DNA of 31,490 nt, taken from the IMG/VR virus record IMGVR_UViG_3300029779_000023; one strand, given 5' to 3'. The notes under the pieces are model-generated. The model was given only the letters and a program-made list of their open reading frames with translations. It was not told where the DNA came from and searched no databases. Made by a program: the position numbers and the translations under genes. The stretch is from a virus. Every line of letters begins with the position of its first letter. Position 1 is the first letter of the stretch. Below, one piece after another: positions 180 to 31,490 of this stretch.

Positions 180-1214
180 TCAAGCGGCGGCAAGGTGGGC
201 GGCGAACAGGTCGTTTGAACTCGCGAAGCCTAAAATTTCGCGCGGATAGTTATTGATCCACGTTTCGACGCGAAGAATATATGCGGCGGTTACTTTCCGG
301 AAGTCTGTTCCTTTCGGCAAGAACCGCCGTATCATTCTGTTTATATTTTCATTCGTTCCCCGCTCGAATGCGCTATAAGGGTGGCAATAATAAACCTTCG
401 TCCGCTTCCGGTTCTTCCCGTAGATTGACTTTTCAATTCCGGCGCAATCCGCGAATTCTGAACCGTTGTCAAACGTAATGCTTTTGAATATCTTTGAAAA
501 GCGCTTTCCATATCGGCGTTCCAGCTTATTCAGCGCCGCCACGACGCTGGCGGCTGTCTGATCCGGTATCTTCATAATGATTTCTTGCCGCGTCAGACGT
601 TCCGAAAGAACGAACAAGGCTTCCTTCGTCTTTTTCTTTCCGCATACGCAATCGCCTTCCCAATGCCCGAAGGTTTTTCGTTCGTCAATCTCCGGATCGC
701 GTCTTTCTATGCTTTCGCCCTGCGGCGCGCGGGCGGATTTCTTGCGCTTTACTTTTTCATATTTCCGCTTCCGCTTTCCTTTCTCCGGTAAGCTCTCGCG
801 GCTGATCCCGAAAAATATTCCCTTGTCGATGTAGTTATAAATCGTCTTTTCGCTGATCTCCGTTTTGAAGGTCAGCCCCAGCCGTTTGATTTCCCCTACA
901 ACGGCGGCGGGGGAATATCCCTCTTCACCGATTTTCTTTTCGATGAAAGCGGCTAATTCGTGATCGCTCCCGATCTTTAATTCTCCGCCTTTCGCCGCAA
1001 GGTTTTCACGATAACGGGCTTCGGCAATTTCCGGCGAATAGCGTTCTTCCGTCGTCAAGTCGGAATTCAAATGCGTATATGTTCCACGTTTTAATTCCCT
1101 GTAAATCGTCGAATTATGTACGTGTAGCCTGTCGGCGATCTTGCAGGGCTTCAATCCCTCTTTCAACGCCTTTTCTATTTTAAGGCGATCCGTCCACGTC
1201 AAATGCTTGTGCAT
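180..1214 (-). CDS. IS30-family DDE transposase, apparently intact (344 aa)
   Basis: N-terminal HTH (LTWTDRLKIEKALKEG...STIYRELKRG). Catalytic landmarks HWEGD, ITFDNGSEF and HPYSAFERGTNENINRMIRRFLPKGTDF are present. RBS GGAAGGAGG lies before ATG 1214. Confidence 0.9.
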   Translation of the reverse strand: MHKHLTWTDRLKIEKALKEGLKPCKIADRLHVHNSTIYRELKRGTYTHLNSDLTTEERYSPEIAEARYRENLAAKGGELKIGSDHELAAFIEKKIGEEGYSPAAVVGEIKRLGLTFKTEISEKTIYNYIDKGIFFGISRESLPEKGKRKRKYEKVKRKKSARAPQGESIERRDPEIDERKTFGHWEGDCVCGKKKTKEALFVLSERLTRQEIIMKIPDQTAASVVAALNKLERRYGKRFSKIFKSITFDNGSEFADCAGIEKSIYGKNRKRTKVYYCHPYSAFERGTNENINRMIRRFLPKGTDFRKVTAAYILRVETWINNYPREILGFASSNDLFAAHLAAA

Positions 1215-3535: not shown

Positions 3536-4525
3536 TTAAACAAGCGTCAGATCGGACAGCTTCACCGCCGCGACAACCACGCCACCGTATGTAATCACGG
3601 CGCGATCTCCGCTGATTTCCTTTACGACGTGATCGCGGTTATACACGAAGGAAGCAAGGCTTTTCCCGTCGTAGGTTTTCGCGCCCTGCTTCAAGCGTAC
3701 TTTGCTTCCCACCTTCACGGAAGCCGCCGCCGTGCCGCCGCTTCCGGTCGTAATAAAAGCGTCAGAATATCCCGCCGCTTTCAGCTTTGCAAGCATAGCG
3801 TCGGCGTTTGCCTTCTTGCTGAACGCACCCACCTGTACTTTGTAATAGCCGCCCGTATTCGCGACGTAGGTATCGAAACCAGCCGCCTTCAATTTCTTTT
3901 CCAGCGCCTGTGCGTTCGATTTCTGCTTGAAAGCGCCTGTCTGCACTTTGTAAAGCGTACCAGCTCCGGAAGAAGGCGTTTCCGGCTCCGCCGGGGAAGC
4001 CCCCAGCCTTTTGTTTACCTCCGCCGCGATCGCGCCGTGCCTTTCGTACAGATAATCCCCCGGACAGGATTTATTCGCGTAATCTCTATGAACCGTCATA
4101 TTGCAACCGTTCAAATGATTAACGCGCTCATTCTTATTCGTAGACCAAACAAGTTTCTTGATCCCGTTCCTGCGGCAAATATCCGTTACAAGGTCAAGAA
4201 GGGCGGCGTATGCTTTCGCGTTCACGGCGTAAGGGTGTGCCGTGTCGCTTGCAACTTCGATTGTGATTGCGCGGTTATCGTTCGCCGCGTTTGAACTGCA
4301 CCACGAACGATCCTTTTCTTCGACATACATTCCGATACGTCCGTCAACGCCCACGCCGTAATTAGAACTTGCCTGTCGCGAAGTCGGCGCAAAGATGTTT
4401 CCCAGCGTTTCAACGGAACATTGCCCGACAACGCAATGAATTGTGATCGTGTCGATCGCGTGATTTCGCGGGCTTGTTCTGTTCGGTGAAATTTTCGTGT
4501 AGTCCACCAGCGTGCTGTTACTCAT
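3536..4525 (-). CDS. Endolysin: N-acetylmuramoyl-L-alanine amidase (Amidase_2/PGRP type) with two SPOR repeats and a C-terminal SH3-like segment
   Basis: ITIHCVVG, NDNRAITIEVA and HRDYANKSCPG motifs. YKVQTGAFKQKSNAQALEKKLKAAGF and YKVQVGAFSKKANADAMLAKLKAAGY are SPOR-like. RBS GGAGG is present. Confidence 0.85.
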   Translation of the reverse strand: MSNSTLVDYTKISPNRTSPRNHAIDTITIHCVVGQCSVETLGNIFAPTSRQASSNYGVGVDGRIGMYVEEKDRSWCSSNAANDNRAITIEVASDTAHPYAVNAKAYAALLDLVTDICRRNGIKKLVWSTNKNERVNHLNGCNMTVHRDYANKSCPGDYLYERHGAIAAEVNKRLGASPAEPETPSSGAGTLYKVQTGAFKQKSNAQALEKKLKAAGFDTYVANTGGYYKVQVGAFSKKANADAMLAKLKAAGYSDAFITTGSGGTAAASVKVGSKVRLKQGAKTYDGKSLASFVYNRDHVVKEISGDRAVITYGGVVVAAVKLSDLTLV

Positions 4526-4587: not shown

Positions 4588-4881
4588 TTACTTGCTGATT
4601 TGCTGTTCGATATGGTCAAGTCGTTTATGTGCCTGTTTTGCAGACGCTTCAACGGAAACAAGCCTTCCGACGAAATCGGTATTCGTCTTTCTCTGTTCCC
4701 GTTGTTCCGCCTTTACGTCGTCAATGCCGCCTTTTATGTATCCCAATTCGGTTAGAATTGTTGCGTCGCTCTTCGCTTCTTTGGTCTTGTCGCTGTCCCT
4801 ATTACGGACAAAAGCGATATACCCAAACACGATTGCGCAAACGGTACTGATAACAGATAAAACGGTCATTGCATTTTCCAT
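4588..4881 (-). CDS. Membrane-anchored coiled-coil lysis-associated protein (XhlA/BhlA-like topology), 97 aa
   Basis: N-terminal TM VLSVISTVCAIVFGYIAFV followed by a charged coiled-coil tail. RBS AGGAGG lies 7 nt before ATG 4881. It is the first gene of the lysis cassette. Confidence 0.45.
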   Translation of the reverse strand: MENAMTVLSVISTVCAIVFGYIAFVRNRDSDKTKEAKSDATILTELGYIKGGIDDVKAEQREQRKTNTDFVGRLVSVEASAKQAHKRLDHIEQQISK

Positions 4882-5948
4882 TCGTCGCCCTCCTTTCGTT
4901 CATTGGCGATTTGTGCCGCCGCGCTTGCGGCTTGCCGCTCTTCCCGCGCGCCCTCCAGCCGTCGAAGCATTCCTTCCCGAAGCAAGTACGCGTCCGCGTG
5001 TTGGATATGCCCCAGCCAGCTTTGAAGGGCTTTCGCGAAGCGCTCTTCGCTGATAATTCCCTTCCGGTATGCGCGGATCGTCCGCTTCATTCGGCGAATG
5101 CTTGTTTTGCGCACCTTCTTGTGGTCGGTGAAGTGTCTGTATCCGCAGAAATCAACGCCGTTCTTGCAATTAAGGATCGTTGTTTTCGGATTGAGAAGCA
5201 AGCCCAATTCCGAAGCAAGGAAGAATTCGATCTTCTGCAACAAATCCCGCAAATACGCCTTGTCGGGCGAAAGGATAACGAAGTCGTCCATATAGCGTAT
5301 ATAATGCCGAACGTGCAAGGTTTCTTTCAAATACTTGTCCATCCGATCAAGATATAAATTCGCGAATAACTGTGACGTAAGGTTTCCGACGGGAATTCCC
5401 TTGCCGTCCGTGCCGACGTTGTCGATGATTTTATCGAGAAGCGCAAGCGCTTCTTCGTCCTTGATGATCCGCCGGATCGTCGCTTTCAGCCTTTCGTGGT
5501 CGATTGATTGAAAGTAATGGTGAATGTCCGCTTTGATCGCGTACAGCGGTTTTCCGTCGAAGGTTTCATCGTAAAGCCATTTCGTCAGCACTTCGGAAGC
5601 CTTGTGCATTCCCTTTTCCTTGCGGCAAGCGTAGGAATGATAATAAAACCGCCGATCTATCAGCGGTTCTAAAATATTGTTGATCGCGTGTTGCGCGACG
5701 CGATCGGCGAACGGAAGGGCGGAGATTAACCGCTTCTTCGGTTCGTAAACGTAAAACGTGCGGTAAATCCCTTGTTCGTAAGAATGCCATATCAAGTGAT
5801 TTTGCAAATTGATAAGGTTTTCTTCAAGATTTCGCGAATACCGCAAAACTTCGTTACGATAACGCTTGCACCGCCGCGCTTTCTTGTATGCGCGTTCGAG
5901 ATTTGCGAAATCGTATATCTGTTCATAAATTCCGGTGTATCTTTTCAT
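4866..5948 (-). CDS. DGR-type reverse transcriptase (360 aa)
   Basis: ATG 5948 with RBS GGGAGG (5953-5958). Motifs IPVGNLTSQLFANLYL ([I/L]GxxxSQ, DGR signature) and RYMDDFVIL (YxDD). The 57-codon upstream extension in the track ORF merely reads through the TR and spacer. Confidence 0.9.
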   Translation of the reverse strand: MKRYTGIYEQIYDFANLERAYKKARRCKRYRNEVLRYSRNLEENLINLQNHLIWHSYEQGIYRTFYVYEPKKRLISALPFADRVAQHAINNILEPLIDRRFYYHSYACRKEKGMHKASEVLTKWLYDETFDGKPLYAIKADIHHYFQSIDHERLKATIRRIIKDEEALALLDKIIDNVGTDGKGIPVGNLTSQLFANLYLDRMDKYLKETLHVRHYIRYMDDFVILSPDKAYLRDLLQKIEFFLASELGLLLNPKTTILNCKNGVDFCGYRHFTDHKKVRKTSIRRMKRTIRAYRKGIISEERFAKALQSWLGHIQHADAYLLREGMLRRLEGAREERQAASAAAQIANERKEGDEWKMQ

Positions 5949-6114
5949 AGAACCTCCCGCGTCCGCCTTTCGCTTTCTGCTACTAACCAGCCGCGTCCCT
6001 TTTCGTATTTGCCCAGCGGTATTCCTCCGCCAAGACGGGCAAAGCGTTCTGACTAATGGTATTTGCATTAGTTGTGCCGTTGCTCCGTAAAGCAACACGC
6101 CTAAAAGTTTCCAA
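5949..6114 (-). ncRNA. TR-to-RT spacer of the DGR RNA (structured)
   Basis: Non-coding 166 nt with three hairpins: 6079-6096 (6 bp), 6052-6072 (7 bp) and 6009-6042 (6 bp outer plus 4 bp inner). Confidence 0.5.
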
Positions 6115-6232
6115 GTCACAGGCGCACCGCGCGCCGATGCTCGGGTTCACGTCCCACGGGTAGTTGTTCAAGCGGACGGCGCGCGCCCCGGCGTGAACGC
6201 CATTGTGCCAGTTGCCGCCGCCGAGAAGGGCG
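6115..6232 (-). repeat. DGR template repeat (TR), RT-proximal copy
   Basis: 118 nt with 104 identical to 6678-6795 at a fixed offset of 563. It is non-coding, between avd and the RT gene. Confidence 0.85.
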
Positions 6233-6259
6233 CAGAATTAACAACGCTTTGCCCAAATG

Positions 6260-6601
6260 TCAACGCCCGCTTTGCGCAAACTTTATCAGCCCGCCGAGAA
6301 GCGAACCGATTTCAGCGATCTTCCCGCATATCACGCCGTATTGCTTCGGATTGATATATCGGAGATCATGCGCAAGGCGGATCAACATTTTTAATTCCTC
6401 TATGAGAACGTCCGCTTCGTATAGGTTGGATTTCTTCGCCGTGCTTTTGTTTGCCTTGATAACGCACCGTTCCAAATCTATCACGCAATTTTTGATTTGC
6501 GTTTGAAGCGTGAATTTCTCATACTTCGGGAACTTTGCAATTATGGGATAGAGGTACAAGAGAAAATCGTATACCTTTTGATACAATACCAGCTTTTCCA
6601 T
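6260..6601 (-). CDS. avd: Accessory variability determinant (Avd-like four-helix-bundle protein), 113 aa
   Basis: Size, position between VR and TR, and sequence (YQKVYDFLLYLYPIIAKFPKYEKFTL...) typical of the Avd / 23S-rRNA-IVS protein family. Confidence 0.8.
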   Translation of the reverse strand: MEKLVLYQKVYDFLLYLYPIIAKFPKYEKFTLQTQIKNCVIDLERCVIKANKSTAKKSNLYEADVLIEELKMLIRLAHDLRYINPKQYGVICGKIAEIGSLLGGLIKFAQSGR

Positions 6602-6617
6602 GTGTCAAAGTCCCTTC

Positions 6618-6647
6618 AAAAATAGGGGACGGGCTTTCGCCCGCCCC
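6618..6647 (-). terminator. GC-rich hairpin with GAAA loop downstream of VR (terminator-like; candidate DGR target-recognition hairpin)
   Basis: Minus strand reads GGGGCGGGC-GAAA-GCCCGTCCCC (9 bp, one bulge, 6625-6647) followed by TATTTTTG. It lies 30 nt beyond the VR 3' end. Confidence 0.6.
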
Positions 6648-6668
6648 GTCAGATATTCAGATAACAGA

Positions 6669-7862
6669 TTACAGACTGTCACAGGCGCACCGCGCGCCGA
6701 GGTACGTGTACACGTTCCACGGGTAGAAGTACAAGTTGACGGCGCGCGCCCCGGCGTGAACGCCATCGGACCAGTTGCCGCCGCCGAGAAGGGCGACAAG
6801 CGAATAATCGTTGTACTGATAAATATTTCCGTATCCGTCGCCGAACGGGGAAGTTGTGTCCCAGCCCCATACACCGTCGTTCGTTGCGTGATAGTGTCCA
6901 TTCCCGTTTGTGTACTCTTTTCCTGCGCGCCCGCCGTCGTATGAAGGGAATGTTCCGCTTCCGTTCAGCTTTACGTGTTCCGCCCGCGTGATAAGCTCGT
7001 TCAGCCATTCCCATACATTTCCGACGCAATCGCGGCAACCGATCGAAGAAACGGCATTTGCGACGTATCCGGTTTTCTGCCTTCCGGTGTTTCCGGTCGC
7101 GCTCCATGCGTTCGTGTTGCTGTCCGCCATCCCCTGCGGGCTTCCGAAAGCCGCCATGCAAAACTCTTCGTATGTCAGAAGGCGCTTGCCGGATACAAGG
7201 GCGCGTTCAACGAACCCGTACCAATTCAAGCCTTCCGTTCCGGTCATCGGTGTGGCGTTATAGGCGGAAGCAAGCCCGCCCGCTCCGTCGTCGGAAGAAA
7301 GGTAAATATCAACCCATGTCCCGTTTGCGAGATAGACCATGCCTTCGGGATTGCACTTCGGACGATGTGCCAGCGTCCAAACGGAACGTGGAACGATACC
7401 GTCGAACACGGAACTTTCCCAGTTTGTGCCGCGTACCGCGCCGGAAGCGTTCACAGGCGCAAGCGCGGCGTTCACTTTGCGGCACTTACCGTAATGGAAG
7501 CCGCCGATCTTGCGGCTGTTTGCCGCTCCGTAGCCCGCCGGGTAGGTGGAATTCAGCGAAATTTTATAAACTTCGTCGTTACCTTCTCCCGCGTCGCACA
7601 GGAAAATATAATAATCCTTTCCGACGGTGAAAGCCGCCCCGCTGTCAAGATCAGCCGCCGAAAGTGCGGTGTTTTCGGTCTTGAACACGCCGCCGCCGAA
7701 AATGGAGAAGATACAACCTTCTTCGATCTGCAACGTGTCGCTTCCGATCACGGTGATATACTGCTTGATCGGAATTGCCGTTTCGGAAAGTGTGGCGATC
7801 TTGCCCGTGTTAAGCAGGGCGCGGGGATCGCGGTTTACGAAATCATTTGTCAGAAAGCGCAT
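6669..7862 (-). CDS. DGR target: tail-fibre / receptor-binding protein with an FGE-sulfatase / C-type-lectin-like C-terminal domain (397 aa)
   Basis: GCRDCVGNVWEWLNE and the C-terminal GGGNWSDGVHAGARAVNLYFYPWNVYTYLGARCACDSL are typical of DGR variable proteins. It is the last structural gene after the fibre genes. Confidence 0.85.
   Translation of the reverse strand: MRFLTNDFVNRDPRALLNTGKIATLSETAIPIKQYITVIGSDTLQIEEGCIFSIFGGGVFKTENTALSAADLDSGAAFTVGKDYYIFLCDAGEGNDEVYKISLNSTYPAGYGAANSRKIGGFHYGKCRKVNAALAPVNASGAVRGTNWESSVFDGIVPRSVWTLAHRPKCNPEGMVYLANGTWVDIYLSSDDGAGGLASAYNATPMTGTEGLNWYGFVERALVSGKRLLTYEEFCMAAFGSPQGMADSNTNAWSATGNTGRQKTGYVANAVSSIGCRDCVGNVWEWLNELITRAEHVKLNGSGTFPSYDGGRAGKEYTNGNGHYHATNDGVWGWDTTSPFGDGYGNIYQYNDYSLVALLGGGNWSDGVHAGARAVNLYFYPWNVYTYLGARCACDSL
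6678..6795 (-). repeat. DGR variable repeat (VR) at the 3' end of the target gene
   Basis: Matches the TR at 104/118 positions. The 14 mismatches sit in 10 codons. The 3' end carries a 15-nt GC-rich block GGCGCGCGGTGCGCC (plus 6684-6698). Confidence 0.85.
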
Positions 7863-10451: not shown

Positions 10452-11339
10452 CTACACCCCCAAATACAAGTTATTGTGATAAATGGATACTTCGAGATTT
10501 TCCGCGTTTGTATCCGCTGAATATCGGAAAAGGTTATCGCCCACGGCAAGCTGTAAATATGAACTGTCAACGTCCAAATAACGGAAAGCGTCGGTTTCAA
10601 CGCCGCCGCGTAACAGTTTTACGGATTTTTCGCCGTATCCCGTCGAAACGGTCAGCACGTCGCCCGCTTCCAGCGCAAGGTTCGCTTTAATGAATTCCTG
10701 CGTATTGACGTTCAGAAGCTGTGGATTTGTCAGCGCGCCCAGCGCGCGGAACTCGATCCGGATACCGCTTTTCACGTCGCCGGAATTGAACACGTTGACG
10801 ATCAGCGAAGGCTGGCGGTATCCGATTTCCCAATCCTCCGTTATCTCCAGCCCGTCCGGAACGGGAAATTCAAAGCCGCCGATCCACGTTGCTATATCCT
10901 CGCGCGTTTCCGCCTCTTCCCGCCAAAACGGATTAAGGCACGAAAGCTGGATTGTGAATTGCTCTAATATCGTCCCGCGCTTGAAGATCGGCGCATTGTT
11001 GATCGTGCAACCGATAACCCGCTTGAAGTCGCCCAATTCGTAAGTAAGCGTCGCGGAATACTGCGGATTTAATATCCTGTTCAGATTTCGGCGCAATTCC
11101 TGCACGGCGATTTTGTCCCGCTCCTTGATATGCCCTACGATGTCAATATCGCGGCTTTCAATGCGGTATCCTAAATAGGTATCGCCGTCCTGTCCCATAC
11201 TGTTTGTTGAATATATGGCGTTCTGCACGTCAGACAAGCCGGAAACGTCCTTGAAGTTTACGTGATACGAAGAAGAAGGGGAAAAGACAATGCTTTCCCC
11301 CCGCTCGTTCGTGTAGGTCAATTTCTCTTGTGTTTTCAT
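10452..11339 (-). CDS. Distal tail protein (Dit, siphovirus tail component family)
   Basis: ATGA overlap with the tape-measure stop, plus size and position typical of Dit. Confidence 0.7.
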   Translation of the reverse strand: MKTQEKLTYTNERGESIVFSPSSSYHVNFKDVSGLSDVQNAIYSTNSMGQDGDTYLGYRIESRDIDIVGHIKERDKIAVQELRRNLNRILNPQYSATLTYELGDFKRVIGCTINNAPIFKRGTILEQFTIQLSCLNPFWREEAETREDIATWIGGFEFPVPDGLEITEDWEIGYRQPSLIVNVFNSGDVKSGIRIEFRALGALTNPQLLNVNTQEFIKANLALEAGDVLTVSTGYGEKSVKLLRGGVETDAFRYLDVDSSYLQLAVGDNLFRYSADTNAENLEVSIYHNNLYLGV

Positions 11340-14269
11340 CAGCCCATTACCTCCCGCGCAATCATTCTGAACTGCCGCGCCGCTTCGCGCTGTTGCTGGG
11401 CGTAGGAAGTATCGTTCGCGTAGATGTTTTGTACCACCTCGAAGCGCGCTTCCTGTCTGCCGCCTTTGCGCGGGCGCGGTTCCGGATCGCCGGGAACGGC
11501 GTTATCGGTCGCCCTGCGGATCGTCTTTTCAACGTTTCGCATTTCGCGCCCGAAGCCTTCGGCAAGCCCCTGCGCCATATATTCGCCGATACCCGCAAAT
11601 ACTTTCGACGGGGAAGCAATATCCATTTCATCTTCAACCGCCGCGACAATTTCGCGCATCATCGAACGCACGCGGCTTTCCAGCCAGCTCGACATATTTT
11701 GAAAGCCCTGCCAAATGCCGCGCACCATTTCTTCGCCCGCCGCCACGAAGTCGGATACAAACGAATTCAGCGCGGTAATAACGGGCTGTACGATTTGCGC
11801 CACTTTTCCGGTGATCTGCGGGATACCCTGCACCATTCCGGAAGCTATATTCTTGTCGATCGTAACGCCCGCTTGAATGAACTTTTGATTTTGCGCGGTG
11901 AAGGCGGTTATAATGCTCTGCGTGATTTGCGGTATCTTTGCCGTGATCTGCGGGATACCCTGCACCATACCGGAAGAAATCTGATTGTCAAAATCCTGTC
12001 CGGCTTGAATGAGCCTTTGCGCCTGTGCGTTCAGTCCGGTAATAACCTTCTCGACGATCGCGTTTATCGCTCCGGAAAGCCCTTCGATATTCGCCATAAT
12101 GCCGTCATTCACGGCGCGCACCGCTTCGGCGGCGGTAAGCTGTCCCGCTCCGCCCATTGCGGCGGTCATATCAGCCGAAACGCCGTCCATACTTTCGCCG
12201 AAGCCTACGCCCACGCCTTCGCCCATATTCGTACCGATTTCGGCGAACACGGTTGAAGGGGAGTGAATGCCGAAGAAACTTTTAATCCCGCTCACAAGGG
12301 AAGAAGCCCAGCCGGTTACTTTGTCCCATAACCACGAAGCCGCGCTTGAAATACCTTCCCACAATCCGTGAAGAAGGTTTGCGCCCGCACTCACCATTTC
12401 GCCGCCCAAACTTGCGAACGCCTGTACGATACCGGAAACGATCTGCGGAACCGCTTTGACAATTTCAACAATGATCGTCGGCAAATTCTGAATGAGGGAA
12501 ACGAACAACTGAACGCCCGCTTGAATGATCTGCGGGATATTCTGCACAAGCGCGTTTACAATCCCGCTGATAATCTGCGGGATCGCCTGTACGATCGTCG
12601 TTATGATCTGCGGAAGCGCCTGTATCAGCGCCACAAGAAGGTCAATGCCCGCTTGAACAATCTGCGGGATATTTTCAAGAAGCGCTGTAATGATCCCATT
12701 TATGATTTCCGGAATAGCCGAAACAATCGTCGTAATGATTTCCGGAAGGGCGGAAATAAGGGAAGTCAGAAGGTCGATACCCGCTTGAATAATTTGCGGG
12801 ATCGCCGCCAGCAGTCCATTAACAAGGCTCGTTATCACTTGCGGAAGCGCCGCTACAAGAACGGGGATCGCGTTAATGATACCCTGCGCCAGCCCTGTAA
12901 TAAGCTGTAATGCCGCGTCAATCAGCATAGGGATATTGTCGATCAGCGTTTGCACCAACTGCGTAATAATCGAAACGATCGTCGGAACAAGCGTCGGCAA
13001 GGCTTGCGCGATACCTGTTGCAAGCGTCCCGATCATCTGCAAGGCGAATTCAAGGAAGGTCGGAAGCATCGTCCCAAGCTGTTCAACGATGAACGTTACA
13101 AGCCCCAGCAAGCCTTCGGAAAACTGTTGCGCCGCGCCTTCTGCGCCCTCCAGCGCTCCTGTCAGCCCTGTTCCGATCAGCTCGACGAACGGCGTTATCT
13201 GTTGCAGAAGATCCGCCGCAAGCTGTTTCAGCTTCGTAACGATAGGTTCGGCAATCGCCCCCAGCGCCGCCATAGCGCTGTTAAGGTTCGCCGTTGCCTT
13301 CTGCGCTTCGATAATATCGCCGTTTACCTCTCTGTAAGCCTCCGCCGCGTCGGAATAAAGCCCGTTCAGCGTTTCCGTAATCAGCGCTTGCCGCTCCTGC
13401 TCCGTTGTGCAAGCGTCCAGCTTCGATTGAAATTCATCTTCCGAAACGCCCGCCCAATTCAAAGCGTCGGCAAGCCCGCCCGTAATCTGTCCGGTTTTCG
13501 CCGTTTCGTTCGCGGCTTCCGTCAAGTTTTCGATCGGCAAGCTGTCGCCGAAGGTCGCATAAACGCCCGTCGCAATATCCGTCCACGTCGCAAGCTCCTG
13601 CTCGTTGTTCGTAAGCTGTGCAAGGTGTGCGGCGGCTTCGGTCGCCTGTCCGTCGTCGCCAAGAATGCCGTACAATTCGGTATAAGTGTTCTTTGCATCT
13701 TCCGCCGAATGCCCCGCCGTTGTAAAGCCCGCTTCCAGCTTGCCCATATTTTCGCGTGCTTCGCGCGTACTCTCTGCAAGCCCTAAAAAGGCGGTAGCTG
13801 CCGCGCCGATCGCCGCGCCCATTGCGGCAACGCCCGCCCCGATTGCCTTTCCTACTTTTCCCACGGTGTCGCCGACGCTTTCCCAATCGATCTTTGAGCT
13901 TTTCAGTTTCTTTGAAGTGTCGTCAAGCTCCCGTTGAACCTTCACCATTTCGGCGCGTGTGTTGTTAAGGTTCGTTTGCATTTTCTGATAGGCGGGATCG
14001 GTAGGATCGATCCCACCTTCACGCATTTTCTTCAATGCCGCTTCTGCGGCTTTCGCTTTCTTTGCCTGTTCGTCAAGCTGTTTTTGTAGAATATCCTGCT
14101 TCCGTGTAAGCGCTTCAATACTTTCCGCATTGTCGCCGAATTCCGCCGTCGCCAGCTTCATTTCCGATCCGATTTCGCGAAGGGAAGTATTGATACCTTT
14201 ACAGGCGGCGCGGTATTCTTTTTCGCCTTCAAGAATAATTTGCGATTTGATTTGCTCTTCCTTCGCCAT
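11339..14269 (-). CDS. Tail tape measure protein (976 aa)
   Basis: Long protein with an N-terminal coiled coil, Gly/Ala-rich TM-like segments and internal 44-aa repeats. It follows the chaperone frameshift pair. Confidence 0.9.
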   Translation of the reverse strand: MAKEEQIKSQIILEGEKEYRAACKGINTSLREIGSEMKLATAEFGDNAESIEALTRKQDILQKQLDEQAKKAKAAEAALKKMREGGIDPTDPAYQKMQTNLNNTRAEMVKVQRELDDTSKKLKSSKIDWESVGDTVGKVGKAIGAGVAAMGAAIGAAATAFLGLAESTREARENMGKLEAGFTTAGHSAEDAKNTYTELYGILGDDGQATEAAAHLAQLTNNEQELATWTDIATGVYATFGDSLPIENLTEAANETAKTGQITGGLADALNWAGVSEDEFQSKLDACTTEQERQALITETLNGLYSDAAEAYREVNGDIIEAQKATANLNSAMAALGAIAEPIVTKLKQLAADLLQQITPFVELIGTGLTGALEGAEGAAQQFSEGLLGLVTFIVEQLGTMLPTFLEFALQMIGTLATGIAQALPTLVPTIVSIITQLVQTLIDNIPMLIDAALQLITGLAQGIINAIPVLVAALPQVITSLVNGLLAAIPQIIQAGIDLLTSLISALPEIITTIVSAIPEIINGIITALLENIPQIVQAGIDLLVALIQALPQIITTIVQAIPQIISGIVNALVQNIPQIIQAGVQLFVSLIQNLPTIIVEIVKAVPQIVSGIVQAFASLGGEMVSAGANLLHGLWEGISSAASWLWDKVTGWASSLVSGIKSFFGIHSPSTVFAEIGTNMGEGVGVGFGESMDGVSADMTAAMGGAGQLTAAEAVRAVNDGIMANIEGLSGAINAIVEKVITGLNAQAQRLIQAGQDFDNQISSGMVQGIPQITAKIPQITQSIITAFTAQNQKFIQAGVTIDKNIASGMVQGIPQITGKVAQIVQPVITALNSFVSDFVAAGEEMVRGIWQGFQNMSSWLESRVRSMMREIVAAVEDEMDIASPSKVFAGIGEYMAQGLAEGFGREMRNVEKTIRRATDNAVPGDPEPRPRKGGRQEARFEVVQNIYANDTSYAQQQREAARQFRMIAREVMG
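11811..11976 (-). repeat. Direct repeat inside the tape-measure gene (period 132 nt)
   Basis: GTGATCTGCGGGATACCCTGCACCAT[T/A]CCGGAAG occurs at 11811-11844 and 11943-11976. Confidence 0.8.
12516..12803 (-). repeat. Tandem 132-nt (44-aa) periodicity inside the tape-measure gene
   Basis: The anchor CCCGCTTGAA..TGCGGGAT recurs at 12516, 12648 and 12780. The protein repeats IPQIIQAGIDLL...-type units. Confidence 0.7.
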
Positions 14270-21921: not shown

Positions 21922-22269
21922 TTAACCTCCCGCCCTCGGTGTTTCACCCTCCCTAAATCCTCGGCGAATAGGGGGGAGTATCACGTTTCCGTTTTCGTCA
22001 AACGAATATCGCTTTTTCCGCTTCGATCGATGGTGTTCTTTGTTATGGCAATCTTGACAAAGCGCTTCGAGATTATCCCACGAAAGCGCAATGTATGGAT
22101 CGTTTACGTTTTGCTCTGTCAAGTATGTTTTGTGATGTGCAATCTTTGCGGCGACGGGATCGTCCGGTGTAGAACAACGTTCGCACAAGTAGCCCTTTGA
22201 TTGCAAGAAGGCATCACGGCAAGAACGCCAAGCGTCGCTGTTGTAGAACTGTTCTGCCCACGGCTTCAT
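21922..22269 (-). CDS. HNH endonuclease (terminase-associated)
   Basis: 115 aa from ATG 22269. CERC...HHKTY...CQDCHNKEHH is an HNH / zinc-finger pattern. Confidence 0.85.
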   Translation of the reverse strand: MKPWAEQFYNSDAWRSCRDAFLQSKGYLCERCSTPDDPVAAKIAHHKTYLTEQNVNDPYIALSWDNLEALCQDCHNKEHHRSKRKKRYSFDENGNVILPPIRRGFREGETPRAGG

Positions 22270-22291
22270 ACTCGCACCTTCCTTTCCCGCG

Positions 22292-22332
22292 CATAATAAA
22301 AGCGCCCTTCCGGATTGCTCCGAAAAGGCGCT
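22292..22332 (-). terminator. Intrinsic terminator inside the late-operon leader
   Basis: The 22301-22332 hairpin has 13 pairs, two of which are G-U only on the minus-strand RNA. It is followed by TTTTATTAT and lies between the late promoter and the HNH RBS. Confidence 0.6.
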
Positions 22333-22372
22333 ATTCGTGCGCTTGCGTCTTGCGTAAGAATTCATCGTAAAC

Positions 22373-23047: not shown

Positions 23048-23446
23048 TCAGCCCTCCGTTTTCCGCTGTAAGTAGTCGATAATCACGCTTGCGGCTTCCT
23101 GCCAGCCCTTGCAGATTGCCGCCGCGTAACCCTGTTCTAAAAGCCCGTCGATCCAGCGCACCTGTTCTTCGCTGATCCTCCCGCCGCGTTGCCGTTTAAG
23201 CTCGATATAAAGCCCGTGATTTCCGCCGCGTGCAACGGGAAGGCAAAGATCCGGAACGCCGGATTTCACGCCCTGCGCCCGAAGGCGTGCCGCCTCGATC
23301 TTGTTTCTGCTCCCGCCGTTCGGAACGTGATACAAAAGCGCCAATTCCGGAAAGCGCCCCGATTGAAGCGCCGCCCACTCGAAAAGCGCGATTTGTTCGT
23401 CCGCTTCCGTAGGAACAGGAAGGGAAGGCGTGTTATTTTTCCGCAT
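23048..23446 (-). CDS. VRR-NUC domain nuclease
   Basis: 132 aa from ATG 23446. EADEQIALFEW...HVPNGG...GVKSGVPDLCL...GLYIELK pattern. Confidence 0.75.
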   Translation of the reverse strand: MRKNNTPSLPVPTEADEQIALFEWAALQSGRFPELALLYHVPNGGSRNKIEAARLRAQGVKSGVPDLCLPVARGGNHGLYIELKRQRGGRISEEQVRWIDGLLEQGYAAAICKGWQEAASVIIDYLQRKTEG

Positions 23447-23753
23447 TTTGCTTCGCCTCCCAATCGTTGAAGAAGAAAAACGGCTTCTTCTGCGCCACCG
23501 CTTCGCCGAACTCATATTTTGCGCCCCTGCTTTCCGTCCAATCCGGAAGGAAGCATACTTCGGCGCATTCGTTCAGCATTGCGCCCGCCATTCGCATATA
23601 CGCTTCCCACGTGAAGCCCTCCGAAGGCAGTAACGCCGGATTGACGACAATAAAGCCGCCTTCCTCCAGCTTCTTCTGCGCTTCATAGAATTTTGAGCGG
23701 TAGAACGGATCGCCCGTAATCTTCCCCGCAAGGTAAACTGTCTTTTTCTGCAT
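23433..23753 (-). CDS. DUF4406 / nucleoside 2-deoxyribosyltransferase-like protein
   Basis: 106 aa from ATG 23753 (RBS GGGAGG). Motifs VYLAGKITGDP...VVNPA...LPDWTESRGAKYE. Confidence 0.65.
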   Translation of the reverse strand: MQKKTVYLAGKITGDPFYRSKFYEAQKKLEEGGFIVVNPALLPSEGFTWEAYMRMAGAMLNECAEVCFLPDWTESRGAKYEFGEAVAQKKPFFFFNDWEAKQNAEK

Positions 23754-31147: not shown

Positions 31148-31402
31148 TTATCTTTCAGCGGCGGCGCGTCTGTTGCCTCTGCGCCGTATGTTTTCCTGTG
31201 CGGTCGTCTGTGCAAGATCGGCGCTGTAAATCGGACGCTTGTTTTCGTCAAGCTCTCCCGTGTATCCGCGTTTAAGCTCTTCGTAAATAGCGGCAACGCT
31301 CCTTCCGATCTTTGCGGCAATATCCACCGCCCGCTCGCCGTCGCTGTAAAGTGCTTCGATTTCGCGGCGCTGATCGAACGTCAAATACGAATATCCGTCC
31401 AT
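31148..31402 (-). CDS. Stand-alone HTH protein homologous to the N-terminal DNA-binding region of IS30-family transposases (84 aa)
   Basis: ATG 31402 with RBS AAAGGAGG. YLTFDQRREIEALYSDG...IAAKIGRSVAAIYEELKRGYTGEL...YS...ENIRRRG aligns with HLTWTDRLKIEKALKEG...IADRLHVHNSTIYRELKRGTYTHL...YS...ENLAAKG of the 180-1214 transposase. Confidence 0.7.
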   Translation of the reverse strand: MDGYSYLTFDQRREIEALYSDGERAVDIAAKIGRSVAAIYEELKRGYTGELDENKRPIYSADLAQTTAQENIRRRGNRRAAAER

Positions 31403-31490
31403 TTCGCAAGCCTCCTTTCGCCGTCCGGATAAAAAAATAAAGCAGGAAAACCCGTTTCGGTTTTCTCTGCTTTTAATGTTACTCCGCACA
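31368..31490. repeat. Terminal direct repeat or assembly overlap, copy 2 (identical to 1-123)
   Basis: Exact 123-nt identity with the window start. Confidence 0.95.

Follow-up and report, generated by a model that had tools for sequence, protein, structure and literature searches.

Adenine-specific changes in the template repeat of a gut-phage diversity-generating retroelement point to a probable overwriting of the template by the element's own product

The DNA analyzed here, which we call the window, is a stretch of 31,490 nt (IMG/VR record IMGVR_UViG_3300029779_000023). Its minus strand carries a complete diversity-generating retroelement (DGR) of the Bordetella-phage type, a kind already known, in which an Mtd-like target with a C-terminal variable repeat (VR) is followed by Avd, the template repeat (TR), and the reverse transcriptase (RT). 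The features are as follows.

6669-7862, minus strand: DGR target gene, encoding a 397-aa Mtd-like tail protein for receptor binding (Pfam, PDB, cluster)
6678-6795, minus strand: VR, the final 39 complete codons of the target gene, then SL-stop; a 118-nt repeat of the TR
6625-6647, minus strand: GC-rich hairpin GGGGCGGGC-GAAA-GCCCGTCCCC, then a T-run (DNA fold)
6260-6601, minus strand: avd accessory gene, 113 aa (Pfam bAvd, 5.4e-30; NCBIfam NF033474 DivGenRetAVD)
6115-6232, minus strand: TR, non-coding, in the avd/RT interval; a repeat of the VR and a derived version of the canonical template
5949-6114, minus strand: TR-RT spacer (DNA fold)
4866-5948, minus strand: reverse transcriptase of the DGR, start codon ATG at 5948, 360 aa (Pfam RVT_1, 3.8e-19)

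All the component parts of a DGR are found at the locus: an RT, Avd, and a TR/VR pair whose VR lies at the 3' end of a target with the Mtd fold. The target matches Pfam mtd_2nd (3.5e-35) and FGE-sulfatase, a C-type-lectin fold (1.6e-06); its top PDB matches are Bordetella phage Mtd (1yu1 and 1yu4), in alignments that include the C-terminal VR segment, and its 90%-identity cluster comprises 687 distinct sequences whose differences lie in the VR, which ends 6 nt ahead of the stop codon. Avd scores 113.7 bits against NF033474 (cut-off 80). The best PDB match of the RT is 8ub7, "Reverse transcriptase" (328 aa, 5e-57), with group II intron and retron RTs at 1e-19, and the RT contains the sequence VGNLTSQ, which we take to be the GxxxSQ signature of DGR RTs. 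A GC-rich 3' end of 21 nt is common to TR and VR, the flanks beyond it diverge, and a strong GC hairpin is present only after the VR, 30 nt downstream of it. By analogy with the BPP-1 stem-loop (PMC3240598), this hairpin is presumed to be the target-recognition stem-loop together with a terminator; the spacer, which holds a 7-bp hairpin (GTTGCTT-TACG-GAGCAAC, 6079-6096), is likewise presumed to be the Sp part of the DGR RNA, as in BPP-1 (PMC5703328). Pairing of the spacer RNA with the VR flank has been proposed to underlie directionality in BPP-1; here, unconstrained duplex folding of the two gave long-loop structures hardly better than those of shuffled sequences. The element is ordinary and active, and its carrier is a common human-gut phage.

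The TR (6115-6232) and the VR (6678-6795) align without gaps over 118 nt at an offset of 563 and differ at 14 sites; when the target ORF sets the reading frame, each of these sites is a first or second codon position. The repeats have three exact blocks in common, of 23, 29, and 25 nt. Since the pair is the only long repeat family in the window besides the terminal overlap (blastn E ~1e-35), the repeat is not a product of chance. Eight mismatches fall on sense-strand adenines of the TR (6138, 6141, 6147, 6164, 6165, 6168, 6204, and 6206), five are reciprocal, with A in the VR and C or G in the TR (6140, 6144, 6153, 6173, and 6174), and the last is C in the TR and T in the VR (6207). Read as codons, TR before VR, the pairs are CAC/TCC, AAT/GAT, CGC/AAC, AAC/TAC, AAC/TTC, GAC/AAC, AAC/TAC, CCG/ACG, AGC/TAC, and ATC/CTC. 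These mismatches, their three classes, and the ten codon pairs had been set out in an earlier note on this DNA, and re-alignment at the same offset in the target frame reproduces them to the base. The same note cautioned that the element might be flagged as atypical, and with reason: the share of mismatches at TR adenines, 8 of 14 (57%), lies below the conventional threshold of at least 75%, and pipelines discard or override such members. Among the clean TR/VR pairs of about 120 related DGR loci, reciprocal mismatches mostly number zero and never more than three, against five of 14 in the window. The pattern is a real outlier.

The origin of this pattern becomes apparent when the window is compared with 13 sibling lineages, which are about 99.9% identical to it (L177-181 is more divergent). 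In 11 of the 13 (L001, L081, L082, L083, L087, L091, L092, L175, L176, L182/183, and L186) the TR reads AAC AAT AAC AAC AAC AAC AAC ACG AAC ATC at the ten codons concerned; the remaining two, L084 and L177-181, each depart from that form by one C>T. The AAC-rich ancestor that the earlier note had deduced for both copies, and had proposed to recover from related phages, is thus a template that exists, exactly, in the siblings, and it accounts for the window's repeats by six changes in the TR and nine in the VR, all at adenines. Relatives carrying the same C or G at the altered TR positions would have spoken against that deduction, and the siblings do not carry them. A reversed polarity, with the window's TR as the ancestral form, is ruled out by the 11 AAC-rich lineages and is contradicted as well by L177-181, one C>T away from the AAC-rich form, and by the window's own VR, which has A at five of the six sites. 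For finding sibling copies, look-ups of exact proteins yielded far more than scans for the TR-flank pattern, which returned one contig each from IMG/VR and the JGI metagenomes; 2,135 collection blocks contain an entry for the Avd protein.

Measured against the canonical template, the VRs of the siblings, different in every lineage, show 80 differences, 78 of them at adenines, which indicates that the element is active and adenine-specific. The window's VR behaves in the same way, with nine of nine differences at template adenines, so that the low share of adenine mismatches is a property of the resident TR copy and not of the enzyme. The change lies in the template, within one span:

6140-6207, minus strand: span of the six derived TR sites, relative to L001 and 12 further sibling lineages

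On the sense strand the changes are 6207 A>C, 6174 A>C, 6173 A>G, 6153 A>G, 6144 A>C, and 6140 A>G. The window is 99.9% identical to L001 over 9,080 nt, and outside the repeats (about 8.8 kb) the two are separated by nine SNPs, all transitions, and one 13-nt indel. Within the TR, six of 118 sites differ, every one of them A in L001 and three of them transversions; 0.12 changes would be expected (Poisson P(>=6) = 3.8e-9; Fisher P = 2e-8), and the probability that all six would fall on adenines is 3e-5. A repeat that should be invariant has therefore acquired six A>C/G substitutions relative to 11 sibling lineages at a background divergence of 0.1%, losing six of its 23 template adenines. The changes resemble those of a VR in other respects. 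Each of the six sites is also altered in sibling VRs, their number falls within the range of 5 to 14 seen per sibling VR, and they are spread over TR positions 26-93, interleaved with adenines that were retained. The substitution sets of the window's TR and VR are disjoint, with A still in the VR at all but one of the six positions altered in the TR, and the new TR codons encode H, R, D, P, and S where the current VR residues are S, N, N, T, and Y. To judge from these substitutions, TR and VR each arose independently from the canonical template, and each has the character of a VR.

The order of events can be read from the same comparison. In L177-181 a non-adenine change in the TR (C>T) is faithfully present in the lineage's own VR, so any later homing in the window should have put C or G into its VR; none is there. 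Because the VR has A, or an independent substitution, at the six sites, the aligned repeats establish that the TR was altered after the last homing into the VR. A second assembled record (ENA ERZ28636052 scaffold_725, 31,419 nt) has the same TR and is 100% identical to the window over 7,194 nt, and the window's exact VR occurs on two contigs. The name of the ENA record refers to BioSample SAMN05971541. The two records belong to one lineage, are known as assembled sequence alone, and possibly represent one sample assembled twice. No VR with the six fixed C/G bases was seen among 14 sampled members of the target cluster.

During the normal cycle, RT-Avd copies the TR transcript into a cDNA with randomized adenines, which replaces the VR and leaves the TR unchanged. 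We suggest that an extra event may have taken place in this genome, in which an adenine-mutagenized product of the DGR replaced the TR itself: the element's own cDNA would have homed into the TR, guided by the 21-nt GC-rich 3' end that the TR shares with the VR and by homology on the 5' side, and would have turned six of the 23 template adenines into C or G. A single event of mis-directed homing is, in our judgment, the most likely cause, and probably the correct one; we infer that delivery was by cDNA homing rather than by conversion at the DNA level. The first possibility offered in the earlier note, that the TR was a recipient of mutagenized information, is the one that fits best. All DGR components are present, with an RT that is 100% identical to that of the active siblings and with Avd and the TR flanks intact, and mutagenized cDNA is known to enter the TR in recombineering-coupled DGRs engineered in E. 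coli (bioRxiv 10.1101/2025.03.24.644984; 10.64898/2026.07.21.739853). Against this, no strong GC hairpin like that of the VR follows the TR, and the 3' flanks of the two repeats are unrelated, so canonical target recognition should disfavor the TR; the 3' flank of the window's TR is identical to that of siblings with an intact TR, and hence no flank change accounts for the event. PHROGs and Pfam scans of the replication/recombination module recognized a replication initiator, methyltransferases, a VRR-NUC nuclease, and an HNH endonuclease, but no single-strand annealing protein of the RecT, Erf, or Sak type; several ORFs are without assignment. A phage-encoded annealing protein that would mimic the recombineering-type self-mutagenesis of TRs was accordingly set aside as a candidate. 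More tentatively, we speculate that the directionality of natural DGRs is leaky, so that mutagenized cDNA may sometimes home into the TR in wild gut phage, and selection, rather than mechanistic immunity alone, keeps AAC-rich TRs invariant; we regard this wider proposition as quite possible, though short of probable.

The TR could instead have been converted at the DNA level by a different, diversified VR from a co-resident copy of the phage genome, through short-patch homologous recombination and with no direct entry of cDNA. The window's TR is indeed indistinguishable in appearance from a typical VR, RT-independent recombination between TR and VR has been reported in an engineered system (bioRxiv 10.1101/2025.03.24.644984), and the phage encodes a VRR-NUC or Holliday-junction-resolvase-like protein. 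The resident VR was not the donor, since the two substitution sets are disjoint and the VR has A at five of the six sites, and any conversion tract would have had to resolve within 19-25 nt plus 23 nt of flanking identity around a core that is 5-10% diverged. Short flanking identity across such a core is a poor substrate for RecA-type recombination. Despite the spacing of 563 nt between the direct repeats, the siblings showed neither deletion nor duplication products, and on balance we think conversion unlikely.

Slightly less credence still is due to the idea that the true TR is canonical and that the assembler placed reads of a minor VR variant between the TR flanks. Short-k de Bruijn graphs can cross repeats with exact blocks of 23, 29, and 25 nt, and the VR population is heterogeneous, as the 687 cluster variants attest. 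A canonical TR at full genome coverage should, however, outcompete a minor VR path, assembly at k >= 55 would physically link most of the six changes to the unique TR flanks, and none of the 13 sibling assemblies presents such a case. The agreement of two separately assembled records (31,490 nt, JGI/IMG; 31,419 nt, ENA) in both TR and VR weakens the population chimera that the earlier note had considered, leaving it a small chance of being correct.

A third view would make the resident TR a decaying pseudo-template, with the VR diversified in trans by the intact TR and RT of a co-resident sibling prophage. Action in trans is possible for DGR components (PMC5758913), and an intact template exists in very many sibling genomes, as the 2,135 Avd blocks suggest; to that extent the suggestion that the true template lies elsewhere stands. 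It fails within the genome itself: self-comparison of the circular genome yields only TR and VR, and a word-7 blastn search with the canonical TR returned these two and chance matches of at most 20 nt. Nor is general decay supported, for RT, Avd, and target are intact and the siblings diversify actively, even though six of 23 template adenines are gone. Diversification in trans would still require an adenine-specific event in the TR, and so would complement mis-directed homing rather than replace it; as an explanation of its own we consider it very improbable. Ordinary point mutation of the TR, perhaps selected to fix favorable residues, finds precedent in the single non-adenine TR changes of L084 and L177-181 and in theory that predicts selection on TR adenines (bioRxiv 10.64898/2026.02.18.706561), but it is scarcely credible when six changes stand against 0.12 expected (P = 4e-9), all at adenines (P = 3e-5) and half of them transversions where nine of nine background SNPs are transitions, a combination of rate, specificity, and transversion content that led us to reject drift, and when the new TR residues are unlike those of the VR, so that nothing has been locked in.

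A normally invariant template that has lost six adenines in the DGR's own pattern would be rare natural evidence of template self-overwriting. An invariant TR is taken to be part of what makes an element a DGR, and pipelines for DGR detection lean on that invariance through the requirement for at least 75% adenine mismatches, dropping atypical members or replacing their bias with a cluster consensus (PMC11792537; Roux et al.). Here an adenine-specific event, located in the template, accounts for one atypical pair and offers a specific origin for part of the non-A-to-N differences that are present in about a quarter of DGRs. The case would also be the equivalent in nature of the TR self-mutagenesis by which engineered DGR mutagenesis systems are limited (bioRxiv 10.1101/2025.03.24.644984; 10.64898/2026.07.21.739853), and it provides an empirical handle on template evolution and adenine loss (bioRxiv 10.64898/2026.02.18.706561). 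For the phage of the window the consequence is a narrower repertoire, with five VR codons losing one or both variable positions; if homing is leaky, templates would erode or re-program themselves, and the thousands of assemblies that contain this phage would allow a direct measurement of how often such homing occurs. Evidence from one lineage is a lead, and not an established rule.

The element resembles the BPP-1 DGR (mtd-avd-TR-brt) in gene order, in its Mtd-homologous target with the VR at the extreme C-terminus, in its four-helix-bundle Avd protein and AAC-rich TR, and in the GC-rich 3' end common to TR and VR with a stem-loop after the VR. The closest solved relative of its RT, 8ub7, is presumably the BPP-1 enzyme itself. 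Doulatov and colleagues, in 2004, reportedly made BPP-1 constructs in which the IMH* of the TR was swapped for IMH, whereupon the TR became a recipient. If a TR receives information once it is given a VR-type 3' recognition sequence, its invariance is sequence-dependent rather than absolute, and a role for IMH in the directionality of homing is documented (PMC3240598; PMC5703328). That swap was engineered, whereas the 3' flank of the window's TR is the same as in siblings whose TR is intact, and the window's TR, unlike that of BPP-1, has six adenine substitutions relative to sibling genomes. The repeats of the window are identical through their GC-rich 3' end and then diverge fully, where BPP-1 has a 21-bp IMH/IMH* pair with five mismatches, and the window's hairpin lies 30 nt past the end of the repeat while that of BPP-1 lies inside a 24-bp flank (PMC3240598).

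Among Mtd-type DGRs of human-gut Firmicute prophages, Faecalibacterium phage Lagaffe is likewise a temperate, siphovirus-like gut phage that diversifies an Mtd-like protein (PMC11792537). The window shows nucleotide similarity to deposited phage records in two short patches only; in species-representative genomes the TR-flank pattern has no match, and the closest RT is 58% identical.

Our literature search found reports of TR self-mutagenesis in engineered systems only, and none in natural ones. With engineered DGRs (DGRec and the two-plasmid BPP-1 DGR in E. coli) the window shares adenine-specific changes that erase TR adenines. Those systems use recombineering (CspRecT with a MutL mutant) in place of homing and have no IMH requirement; the phage of the window, in contrast, is a natural one, its target-recognition elements are native, and no annealing protein could be recognized in it. 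Atypical pairs are familiar from surveys: Wu et al. (2018) recorded non-A-to-N differences between TR and VR in 23% of 372 DGRs, and atypical members of otherwise typical RT clusters are known (Roux et al.). The window is like them in having adenine mismatches below 75%. Such cases have been put down to low RT fidelity, faulty integration, or mutations of unrelated origin, or have been overridden by the cluster consensus. Here, unlike in the surveys, comparison with sibling genomes separates the anomaly cleanly into two sets of changes, each confined to adenines of one and the same template.

The genome in the window was assembled as a circle of ~31.4 kb with an exact 123-nt terminal direct repeat (1-123 = 31368-31490), leaving ~31,367 nt of unique sequence once closed; for this phage, sibling records in ENA have lengths of 31,411-31,419 nt. 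Besides this overlap, the only long repeat pairs 6115-6232 (TR, the RT-proximal copy) with 6678-6795 (VR, the distal copy, in the C-terminal part of the target gene), 118 nt at 88% identity. Compared without gaps at offset 563, the copies differ at 14 sites: at eight the TR carries a sense-strand A, at five the VR has A against C or G in the TR, and one is C against T. Read in the frame of ORF 6669-7862(-), all 14 affect the first or second base of a codon. The mismatch positions in the earlier note agree exactly with this alignment, as do its ten differing codon pairs, and needed no correction. The DGR genes all lie on the minus strand.

Components of the DGR locus
6669-7862, minus strand: target gene, 397 aa, with an Mtd second domain and an FGE-sulfatase (C-type-lectin) domain
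6260-6601, minus strand: avd, exceeding the curated cut-off of the NCBIfam DGR-Avd model
6115-6232, minus strand: TR, non-coding
4866-5948, minus strand: RT, closest solved structure 8ub7 (5e-57)

The RT matches 8ub7, which we take to be the BPP-1 enzyme, far better than group II intron or retron enzymes, and the target's best solved relatives are Bordetella phage Mtd variants, with the C-terminal variable segment aligning too. The target's stop codon lies 6 nt past the VR end, and 30 nt beyond the VR is a GC-rich hairpin that has GAAA as its loop and is followed by a T-run. The TR's downstream spacer is unrelated to the VR flank and holds a weaker hairpin (7 bp, 4-nt loop, GTTGCTT-TACG-GAGCAAC; 6079-6096, minus strand), 19 nt downstream of the TR and roughly mirroring the place of the stronger one; it may do no more than form part of the spacer structure in the DGR RNA, or it could help the TR to be recognized now and then as a target.

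Searching with the RT protein turned up a sibling contig, L001, that encodes an RT 100% identical to the window's. Over 9,080 aligned nt the two differ outside the repeats by nine SNPs, all transitions, and one 13-nt indel, whereas 12 sites differ in the VR and six in the TR. Each of the six TR differences is an A in L001 against C or G in the window. With 9 SNPs in 8,831 nt as the background, 0.12 differences would be expected in the 118-nt TR (Poisson P(>=6) = 3.8e-9; TR versus flanks, Fisher P = 2e-8), and six TR positions drawn at random would all be adenines (of which the TR has 23) with a probability of 3e-5. Transversions make up three of the six TR changes and none of the nine background SNPs. 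We read the templates of 13 sibling lineages in all.

Template state among the siblings
Canonical AAC-rich TR: L001, L081, L082, L083, L087, L091, L092, L175, L176, L182/183, L186
Single C>T at TR position 67 (AAC>AAT): L084
Single C>T at TR position 55 (GCC>GCT): L177-181
Six A>C/G changes in the TR: only the window and its ENA twin, L086

At the relevant codons the L001 TR reads AAC AAT ... AAC ... AAC AAC ... AAC ... AAC ACG AAC ATC, which is letter for letter the ancestor inferred in the earlier note, and the sibling TRs support that note's core inference that both copies were adenine-mutagenised from one AAC-rich template. Reciprocal mismatches (A in the VR, another base in the TR) number zero in most clean TR/VR pairs and at most three among ~120 related DGR loci, so that the window, with five, is extreme in this set.

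No two sibling VRs are alike, and 78 of their 80 differences from the canonical TR are at template adenines; hence the element is active in nature and acts specifically on adenines. The window VR differs from that template by nine changes, all at adenines. The slightly more divergent lineage L177-181 carries its position 55 C>T in its own VR also, the expected faithful transfer of non-adenine bases from TR to VR, and is a natural demonstration of it and an internal control. Its VR has a further C>T beside a mutated adenine (CAC>TCC). Other rare non-adenine changes are at TR position 67 (L084) and at VR positions 36 (T>G, L081) and 91 (G>T, L083); such changes in sibling TRs and VRs, including two of the 80 VR differences, give the baseline rate of non-canonical substitution in the element.

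Faithful copying of non-adenine bases means that any VR templated by the altered TR would show C or G at the six sites. The window VR has A at five and T at one; its template was therefore the canonical one, and the TR changed later. The resident VR is ruled out as donor of the TR changes, the two substitution sets being disjoint. Six of 23 TR adenines changed (sibling VRs show 5-14 differences each), the changes are spread over TR positions 26-93, and each changed site is also altered in some sibling VR. Judged by its sequence, the altered TR resembles a typical homing product. The simplest account is that an adenine-mutagenised, DGR-made sequence replaced the TR in one event, and we favor mis-directed homing of the element's own cDNA. 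RT-made cDNA with randomized adenines would enter the TR instead of the VR, aided by the whole 21-nt GC-rich 3′ end and the 5′ homology that the copies share; with shared ends, directionality would be left to flank sequence and structure only. In BPP-1, integration starts at the GC-rich 3′ end and directionality depends on flank sequence and structure (PMC3240598; PMC5703328), and some DGRs have identical IMH and IMH*, the 3′ recognition ends of VR and TR (PMC5758913).

Short-patch conversion of the TR, with a diversified VR in another copy of the genome as donor, would leave the same signature as cDNA homing, but it must resolve within ~20 nt of flanking identity, and we consider it unlikely. 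Slightly less probable still is the main technical risk, an assembly chimera between TR and VR: the two do share exact blocks of 23-29 nt, yet the same TR and VR occur in the JGI/IMG (31,490 nt) and ENA (31,419 nt) records, possibly from one sample's reads, and no assembly among the 13 sibling lineages has such an error. A hidden third template is excluded for the window's genome, where a search with the canonical TR finds no third copy, and independent point mutation is excluded statistically by the excess of TR changes and their confinement to adenines. We conclude that this is a canonical DGR and that its template underwent adenine mutagenesis one time, the element's own product being the most probable agent.

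The remaining sequence of the window is that of a siphovirus-like temperate phage (tape measure, Dit, Sipho_Gp37, amidase/SPOR lysin, replication initiator, methyltransferases). It is very common, an exact-protein look-up listing its Avd in 2,135 collection blocks, and since Avd sits on contigs of up to ~0.5 Mb (498 kb), it exists as a prophage too; among the TR-bearing contigs, one has the label human gut metagenome. The sole integration-type gene recognized in the window, unusually for such a phage, is not a tyrosine or serine integrase but an IS30-like DDE enzyme (180-1214, minus strand; HTH_38 and rve integrase core just under the Pfam cut-off; PHROG 4646 "transposase," 1.5e-135). In the lysin ORF (3536-4525) the window is without 13 nt (AAGAACAAAATCG) present in L001 at position 4466; because siblings L081-L084 keep the window's 329-aa length, the probable explanation is a frameshifting insertion or an assembly error in L001, close to the gene's 5′ end. 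ORF 11339-14269 (976 aa), presumably the tape-measure gene, holds diverged internal direct repeats (11772-12907) spaced by 132 nt and multiples. Packaging genes adjoin a VRR-NUC/Holliday-junction-resolvase-like nuclease (23051-23515, minus strand) and an HNH endonuclease (21925-22365, minus strand); no RecT/Erf/Sak-type annealing protein was recognized in the window, where several ORFs beside the nucleases have no family match.

The locus offers a single-lineage natural example in which leaky DGR directionality and template erosion can be put to the test in a gut phage of very high abundance; no new kind of system is established by it. Template self-mutagenesis is also reported in BPP-1 constructs in which IMH* is replaced by IMH. 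In the open-access literature searched, it is otherwise described in engineered systems only, where mutagenised cDNA of recombineering-coupled DGRs enters the TR and "continuously erases adenine from TR" (10.1101/2025.03.24.644984; 10.64898/2026.07.21.739853). The TR is treated as unchanged in that literature (PMC3240598), non-A differences between TR and VR are ascribed to RT infidelity, integration errors, or unrelated mutation (PMC5758913), and atypical members are masked by cluster consensus (Roux et al.). In the open-access subset of the literature we found no description of a natural mutated TR resolved by sibling genomes, which is not proof of novelty, and deposited phage genomes hold no close match to the element. 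Its architecture is nonetheless of the BPP-1 type: it is a further member of the well-known BPP-1-like, Mtd-targeting phage DGRs, and its peculiarity lies in the state of the template, not in the kind of element.
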